Positions 13,185 through 13,240 of a stretch of DNA of 21,952 nt are shown here, in pieces. The stretch comes from a virus: the UHGV virus genome UHGV-0246870; one strand, given 5' to 3'. The notes under the pieces are model-generated. The model was not told where the DNA came from, ran no database searches, and was given only the letters and a program-made list of their open reading frames with translations. The stretch's first letter is position 1. The number at the start of each line of letters is the position of its first letter. The translations under genes were made by a program, and so were the position numbers.

Positions 13185-13240
13185 TTTTTCCGCGACGCTC
13201 CCGCCCCGTGGCAGGCCACCCCACCGGAAGGACCCGCACA
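13185..13240. other. Candidate cos site (cosN/cosQ-like)
   Basis: Reverse complement reads GGGTCCTTCCGGTGGGGTGGCCTGCCACGGGGCGGGAGCGTCGCGG, closely resembling my recollection of the lambda cos junction (GGTCCTTTCCGGTG...ACGGGGCGGCGACCTCGCGGG). An AT-rich stretch (13030-13180) separates it from the terminase small subunit start, as cosB does in lambda. Confidence 0.5.

Follow-up and report, generated by a model that had tools for sequence, protein, structure and literature searches.

In lambda-like phages, cosN comprises the 12 bp of the cohesive end and the 2 bp flanking each nick (12 + 2 + 2 bp), and the R3 site is at bp 50–65 in lambda and at bp 48–60 in N15 (PMC9026076). [quoted passage not shown] Also, the terminases of lambda and N15 show no cosN specificity, and either cosN works equally well (PMC4669245). 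In a relevant passage of PMC12315714, the end of mEp213/LLS is inferred to be GGGCGGCGCGCT, with credit to Vahanian et al. (2017, Virology 509:140) and to M. Feiss.

Here we describe a cos site in "the window," which is the entire stretch of viral DNA that we analyzed (21,952 nucleotides of UHGV-0246870). This is very likely the cos of a lambdoid prophage with a packaging and head module of the cdtI/mEp460/mEp213 type; the variant cohesive end would be ordinary, and specificity would reside in cosB and TerS rather than in the core. The variant sticky end is already present at the ends of public records of phages, and variation of this kind has been described and explained before.

The window covers part of the prophage, namely its late region, and all of the late genes are on the minus strand. 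Their order is Q, lysis genes, cos, terS, terL, adaptor, portal, and protease/capsid fusion. More specifically, the genes before cos (in the direction of the minus strand) encode RusA, the Q antiterminator, an N6/N4 methylase, two tRNAs, two holins, and an M15 endolysin. After cos are genes for a 166-aa small terminase, a large terminase of the gpA family (with Pfam matches to GpA_ATPase at 1.8e-75 and to GpA_nuclease at 2.9e-85), a head-tail adaptor, a lambda-family portal, and a fused ClpP protease-capsid protein. The ORFs of terS, terL, portal, and capsid are all intact.

A class-2 cos followed by a DUF1441 TerS, a gpA-type TerL, a lambda-family portal, and a gene that fuses the ClpP protease to the major capsid protein places the packaging module in the cdtI/mEp460/mEp213 group (with a Gifsy-2-like head). 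Class-2 cos sites are defined by CCACG-core-CGCGGRAA..GGCTAGTTTT. In searches with the whole window, E. coli prophages matched at ~90–95% identity across ~71–74% of its length, while phi458, cdtI, mEp460_4F5, and PhiR47_1 matched at ~90% identity over ~55–58%; these searches found no full-length match. The RefSeq annotation of the closest E. coli prophage lists the same set of packaging and head genes as the window has.

The minus strand from 13237 to 13190 reads GCGGGTCCTTCCGGTGGGGTGGCCTGCCACGGGGCGGGAGCGTCGCGG, exactly as quoted in the first-pass annotation, which had proposed a lambda-like cos site with a divergent core. The features of the region are given in Table 1. The predicted nick on the minus strand separates 13207 from 13206, and the one on the opposite strand follows bp 12. 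This fixes the probable ends of the prophage genome and implies a cos-type packaging strategy with predicted 12-nt 5' overhangs. By analogy to lambda, where the role of cosQ has been described (PMC9026076), the heptamer upstream of the nick is probably the signal for the termination of packaging. The segment from cosQ to cosN is 76% G+C, as compared to 49% for the whole window.

Table 1. The cos region and terminase genes of the window. Numbers given as bp are cos coordinates, with bp 1 at window position 13206.
Feature	Window position	Strand	Description
cosQ heptamer GGGTCCT	13229..13235	-	bp -29 to -23 from the top-strand nick; read from the sequence
cosN CG-GGGCGGGAGCGT-CG	13193..13208	-	12-bp cohesive end plus 2 bp flanking each nick
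Predicted 12-nt 5' cohesive end GGGCGGGAGCGT	13195..13206	-	bp 1 is window 13206
Spacer block GGCTAGTTTTT	13174..13184	-	bp 23-33; between cosN and the first TerS site
R3-like TerS site (putative) ATGGGACACCACCAC	13151..13165	-	bp 42-56; GGACA at bp 45, direct
IHF-like site TTTCAACATGTTA	13132..13144	+	bp 63-75, bottom cos strand; one mismatch to WATCAANNNNTTR
R2-like site (putative), inverted	13102..13110	+	bp 97-105; GGACAGGTG; cos strand CACCTGTCC
R1-like site (putative) GTGGGACATCTGACC	13074..13088	-	bp 119-133; direct; repeat with 77-bp spacing
terS	12511..13011	-	166 aa, ATG at 13011; DUF1441 / phrog_141 "terminase small subunit"
terL	10412..12511	-	699 aa, gpA family; ATPase and endonuclease domains

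The junction pattern ACGGGGCGG-N5-TCGCGG has one exact occurrence in the window, and if up to 2 mismatches are allowed, 0.04 matches are expected by chance. These statistics, together with an alignment anchored on the nick, rule out a chance resemblance of the site to lambda. The sole other match in the window (10027–10046) has 2 mismatches and lies within the portal gene, so we consider it to be a chance match and not a cos site.

We aligned lambda, phi80, N15, cdtI, and Tritos to the window, with the nick as the anchor. In the lambda record (NC_001416), the left end is GGGCGGCGACCT followed by CGCGGG... and the right end is ...ACGGGTCCTTTCCGGTGATCCGACAGGTTACG, so the lambda core given in the first-pass annotation is correct. 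The alignment also bears out the proposed similarity. The cosQ heptamer is identical in the window, lambda, phi80, and N15, and the window has both the CG that flanks each nick position and the conserved left half, GGGCGG. With lambda and phi80, the window shares GGGTCCT, the ACG and CGC nick flanks (ACG/CGCGG in the case of lambda), bp 1–6, and T12. As had been claimed, the core does differ from lambda's: bp 1–6 are the same (6/6), but just 2/6 of bp 7–12 are, including the T at bp 12, with differences at bp 7, 8, 9, and 11. N15's core (GGGCGGCGTCCG) differs from lambda's at bp 9 and 12, in agreement with published data. The cosQ of the window is 1 bp nearer to the nick than lambda's, which is at -30 to -24, and the spacer at bp 23–33 is CGCTATTTAT in lambda.

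Towards the terminase genes, the similarity to lambda is in layout instead of sequence. The first-pass annotation had noticed that the AT-rich DNA on this side is in the position of cosB, and we found cosB-like anatomy there: a stretch of 183 bp (bp 13–195, window 13012–13194) with 34% G+C, which ends at terS. A layout of R3, R2(inverted), and R1 or R-like sites at similar distances is common to the window and to the lambda/phi80/N15 type, with a candidate for I1 between the first two in the window, and the small terminase starts at about bp 190–196 (at bp 196 in the window and at bp 191, with Nu1, in lambda). Yet the R-site sequences of the window are unrelated to lambda's. Similarly, both large terminases belong to the gpA family but are only 24% identical (E = 5e-16). 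The window's TerS is a DUF1441 protein without detectable similarity to lambda's Nu1 (BLAST gave no alignment), so this is not a system of the Nu1 type, in which a homolog of gpNu1 recognizes R sequences of the form CGTTTCC.... We found no relatives of this TerS in the PDB.

A 63-aa ORF (13179–13370, minus strand) spans both cosQ and cosN and matches phrog_17397, a family of unknown function (9e-8). The same cos DNA is annotated as a "hypothetical protein" in several phage records. Probably, phrog_17397 is a spurious protein family made from conserved cos DNA.

The same cohesive end is found in deposited phage genomes. The window and cdtI (AB285204 / NC_009514) agree at every position from bp -22 to +30, and Tritos (OV696610) has only 4 differences, all of them left of the nick. 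Both records open with GGGCGGGAGCGT and end with ...CTGCCACG (the linear Tritos record ends with ...CCCCTGCCACG, and the cdtI record with ...CCTGCCACG), and these ends may have been placed by homology. Both phages have the gene order and head type of the window, and cdtI's TerL is 84% identical to the window's. In contrast, cosB diverges from cdtI/Tritos beyond about bp 35: the R3 block is GGCGGCGGCA(A/G)CA in cdtI/Tritos and GGGACACCACCAC in the window. TerS of the cdtI/Tritos type is just 58% identical to the window's, and its putative recognition helix has HRD where the window's has DRK.

The mEp460_4F5 record (LR595868.1, positions 1–30 of our locus L215) begins 5 nt left of where the nick is predicted, which is mild evidence for a physical end there. 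It reads GGGCGGGAGCG-CGG, which is 3 nt fewer than in the other phages, with the gap inside the overhang; an error in assembling the cohesive ends is the probable cause. The Gifsy-1 record begins at attP, not at cos, and was left out of this comparison of ends. By full-text search, we found no phage literature with the exact 12-mer GGGCGGGAGCGT or its complement, and no literature on "phage Tritos." Among described phages, mEp213/LLS is like the window in the type of its packaging/head module, in its Gifsy-2-like fused protease-coat gene, in its class-2 flanks, and in the confinement of variation to the right half. It differs in the right half itself (CGCGCT instead of GAGCGT) and in its cosB/TerS type, which has the CATCATCATCAT block.

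To see how common this core is, we scanned IMG/VR twice. In the first scan, the left half was fixed; in the second, the class-2 flanks were fixed (CCACG-N12-CGCGG-N5-GGCT) and the 12 core bases were free. Among the matches listed for the first scan, lambda's core was present at least 64 times, GGGCGGGAGCGT at least 19 times, GGGCGGCGCGCT at least 9 times, and GGGCGGCGGACT at least 5 times, along with many others; thus, GGGCGGGAGCGT is the second commonest core among the listed IMG/VR matches, behind lambda's own. Among the matches listed for the second scan, the phage-like contexts included GAGCGT (at least 31), CGCGCT (at least 12), GAGCGG (at least 10), CGGACT (at least 7), and others.

De-duplicating the related cos contexts left 70 distinct contexts. 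A large share of the loci in our comparisons are prophages, and these could be defective. Across these 70 contexts, bp 1–6 are at least 96% conserved, bp 7–12 are 54–76% conserved, and the right half takes 16 forms. cosQ (93–100% conserved) and the GTTTT block at bp 28–32 (at least 99% conserved) were not forced by the search pattern. The spacer around this block, GGCTAGTTTTT at bp 23–33, hardly varies in these contexts. Every position that is conserved across the family is intact in the window. The two scans and the 70 contexts show that a divergent core is the usual state of this phage group and not a peculiarity of the window. So, describing the core as divergent is accurate in that it differs from lambda's at four positions, but it is a common variant, and it is found at the ends of the cdtI and Tritos records. 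Genomes of E. coli carry up to 7 copies of this cos region.

Many lambdoid prophages of E. coli are defective, and the window does not show the whole prophage, so we considered whether this cos might be a decayed, non-functional remnant whose core became odd by drift after function was lost. This seems very improbable. The site matches the joined ends of cdtI throughout bp -22 to +30, and only 4 positions, left of the nick, are different in Tritos; the terminase, portal, and capsid ORFs have not decayed; and the positions conserved in the 70 contexts have all been retained.

The first-pass annotation had also argued that a different cohesive end would imply altered terminase specificity. The terminases beside the various cores do not support this. 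Pairs of TerL proteins that are 96% identical are found with different right halves (CTGGCT vs. CGCGCT, and GAGCGT vs. GAGCGG), and TerS proteins that are 100% identical are found beside GAGCGT, GAGCGG, GAGCAT, and CAGCGG. TerLs that are 81–85% identical to the window's adjoin GAGCGT, GAGCGG, or CAGCGG, and those that are 70–78% identical adjoin other cores such as CGCGCT, CTGGCT, and CGGACT. Because near-identical terminases occur with different right halves, because the variation is limited to bp 7–12, and because of the published genetics, the inference of altered specificity is unsupported.

In full, this idea is that the TerL endonuclease has a changed sequence specificity for cosN, with the core itself as the determinant of packaging specificity. 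The window's TerL is indeed far from lambda gpA (just 24% identity), and the TerL subclades are loosely correlated with the types of core. However, shared ancestry alone would give such a loose correlation, and it is broken by the 96%-identical TerLs with different right halves. Also, one class-2 context (L080, with CCACG as its left flank and CGCGGAAAACGGCTAG as its right flank) bears the lambda core itself; the variation is only in the half of the core that is tolerant of change in lambda; and the terminases of lambda and N15 are equally effective on either cosN (PMC4669245). We therefore think that a change in the cosN specificity of TerL is quite unlikely. Applying the tolerance of lambda's right half to this phage is an extrapolation, given the low identity of the TerLs and the lack of relationship between this TerS and Nu1, but it has comparative support.

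If the core does not determine specificity, then the most likely determinants are in cosB and TerS, namely the R-like sites that contain GGACA and residues 23–27 of TerS. GGACA is present at bp 45 (direct), 101 (inverted), and 122 (direct). Using TerS searches, we located prophages in Trabulsiella, Citrobacter, Pantoea, Rosenbergiella, Providencia, Rahnella, and Morganella, and these have either GGACA or [CT]TGTCA at the three R positions; the inverted motif at bp 101–102 recurs in relatives of both motif classes. (The best match to TerS among representative bacterial genomes is from Trabulsiella guamensis, at 79%.) The class of motif covaries with residues 23–27 of TerS: (M/I)DRK occurs with GGACA, LNRG occurs with TGTCA, and (M/L)HRD occurs with the GGCGGCAGCA type of cdtI. 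This is the covariation that the recognition helix of a helix-turn-helix would show, so residues 23–27 may be that helix.

We tentatively place a site for IHF between the R3-like and R2-like sites. The match to the consensus has one mismatch and lies in AT-rich DNA. A TAAY-N4-TTGA block follows the R3-like block at about the same position in relatives from both R-motif classes, and cdtI and Tritos have TAATTTATTGATA, whose complement is a perfect fit to the IHF consensus.

The part of the window with the putative specificity determinants appears to have a different history from its surroundings. On the lysis side and across cosQ and cosN, as far as bp 56 (window 13151), the window is similar at the nucleotide level to phi458 and to the closest E. 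coli prophage; the similarity returns only at 12447, ~21 codons into terL. Within 12447–13151, there is no nucleotide similarity to these two closest relatives except for one weak patch of 96 nt with phi458. The next ~950 bp of terL are ~71% identical to the closest relatives, while the cosN side (from 13151 upwards) is 87–91% identical. At the sensitivity of megablast, the cosB side was covered by none of 5,426 complete E. coli genomes. Because similarity is lost at 13151 and returns at 12447, the cassette of R sites, terS, and the start of terL looks as if it was exchanged as a unit. Within this cos, only the cassette counts as a new member; the rest is known sequence.

By homology with lambda, we propose that dimers of TerS would bind the GGACA-containing R-like sites in cosB, probably with the help of a bend by IHF between the first and second of these sites. 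The cosB-bound TerS would anchor TerL on cosN, and TerL would nick the two strands 12 bp apart to give 5' overhangs of GGGCGGGAGCGT. cosQ, ~23 bp upstream, would be used for termination at the next cos. In lambda-like phages, bp 7–12 would be free of sequence selection because TerL is positioned by the cosB-bound TerS, and the variant end would then be ordinary natural variation.

Another thought is that the hypervariability of bp 7–12 is kept by selection for mutually incompatible sticky ends among lambdoid prophages that reside in the same cell. In lambda, a two-base mismatch between cohesive ends lowers the viable yield by ~4-fold (PMC4669245), so hybrid chromosomes could form less readily between phages whose ends have diverged. 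We regard such selection as unlikely.

Locating the likely determinants of specificity in this phage group helps to predict helper/satellite relationships and possible phage hybrids. As a caution to annotators, a right half of cosN that is not lambda's is normal and should not be taken as a sign of new enzymology. Beyond annotation, the site is of little importance.

The IMG/VR loci included some unusual arrangements. Positions 471–560 of L095 contain a hybrid cos, with a left flank (TGCGGGTCCTTCCGGTGGGGTGGCCTGCCACG) that is identical to the window's and, from there on, the core of lambda and a right flank of the lambda type. Recombination or an exchange of ends between the two classes of phages, exactly at cosN, may have produced it. 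Some other loci (L026, L164, L017, L023, and L046) have two or three cos sites only a few kb apart. Those of L026 are at 91–121, 8226–8256, and 10762–10792; after one of them come a 68-aa ORF and a protease-capsid fusion, without terminase genes, and after the next comes a TerS-like gene. These loci could be satellites or tandem elements that use the same cosN.

Elsewhere in the window, two tandem tRNA genes (15966–16037 and 16044–16116, minus strand; Rfam scores of 65.6 and 72.2 bits) lie between the N6/N4 methylase and the holins. These tRNAs are the only Rfam matches in the window, with none at cos. The Q antiterminator is separated from the N6/N4 methylase by an insert of two genes on the opposite strand (17934–20768, plus strand), one for a 596-aa AAA_15/AAA_21 ATPase and the other for a C-5 cytosine methylase. 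In the closest E. coli prophage, the annotation has just a 198-bp hypothetical gene between Q and the N6/N4 methylase. The ATPase's best matches in PADLOC are to HEC-04 (2.7e-35) and to ATPase-Toprim_I-B (1e-23), and the insert may be a prophage-borne defence moron.
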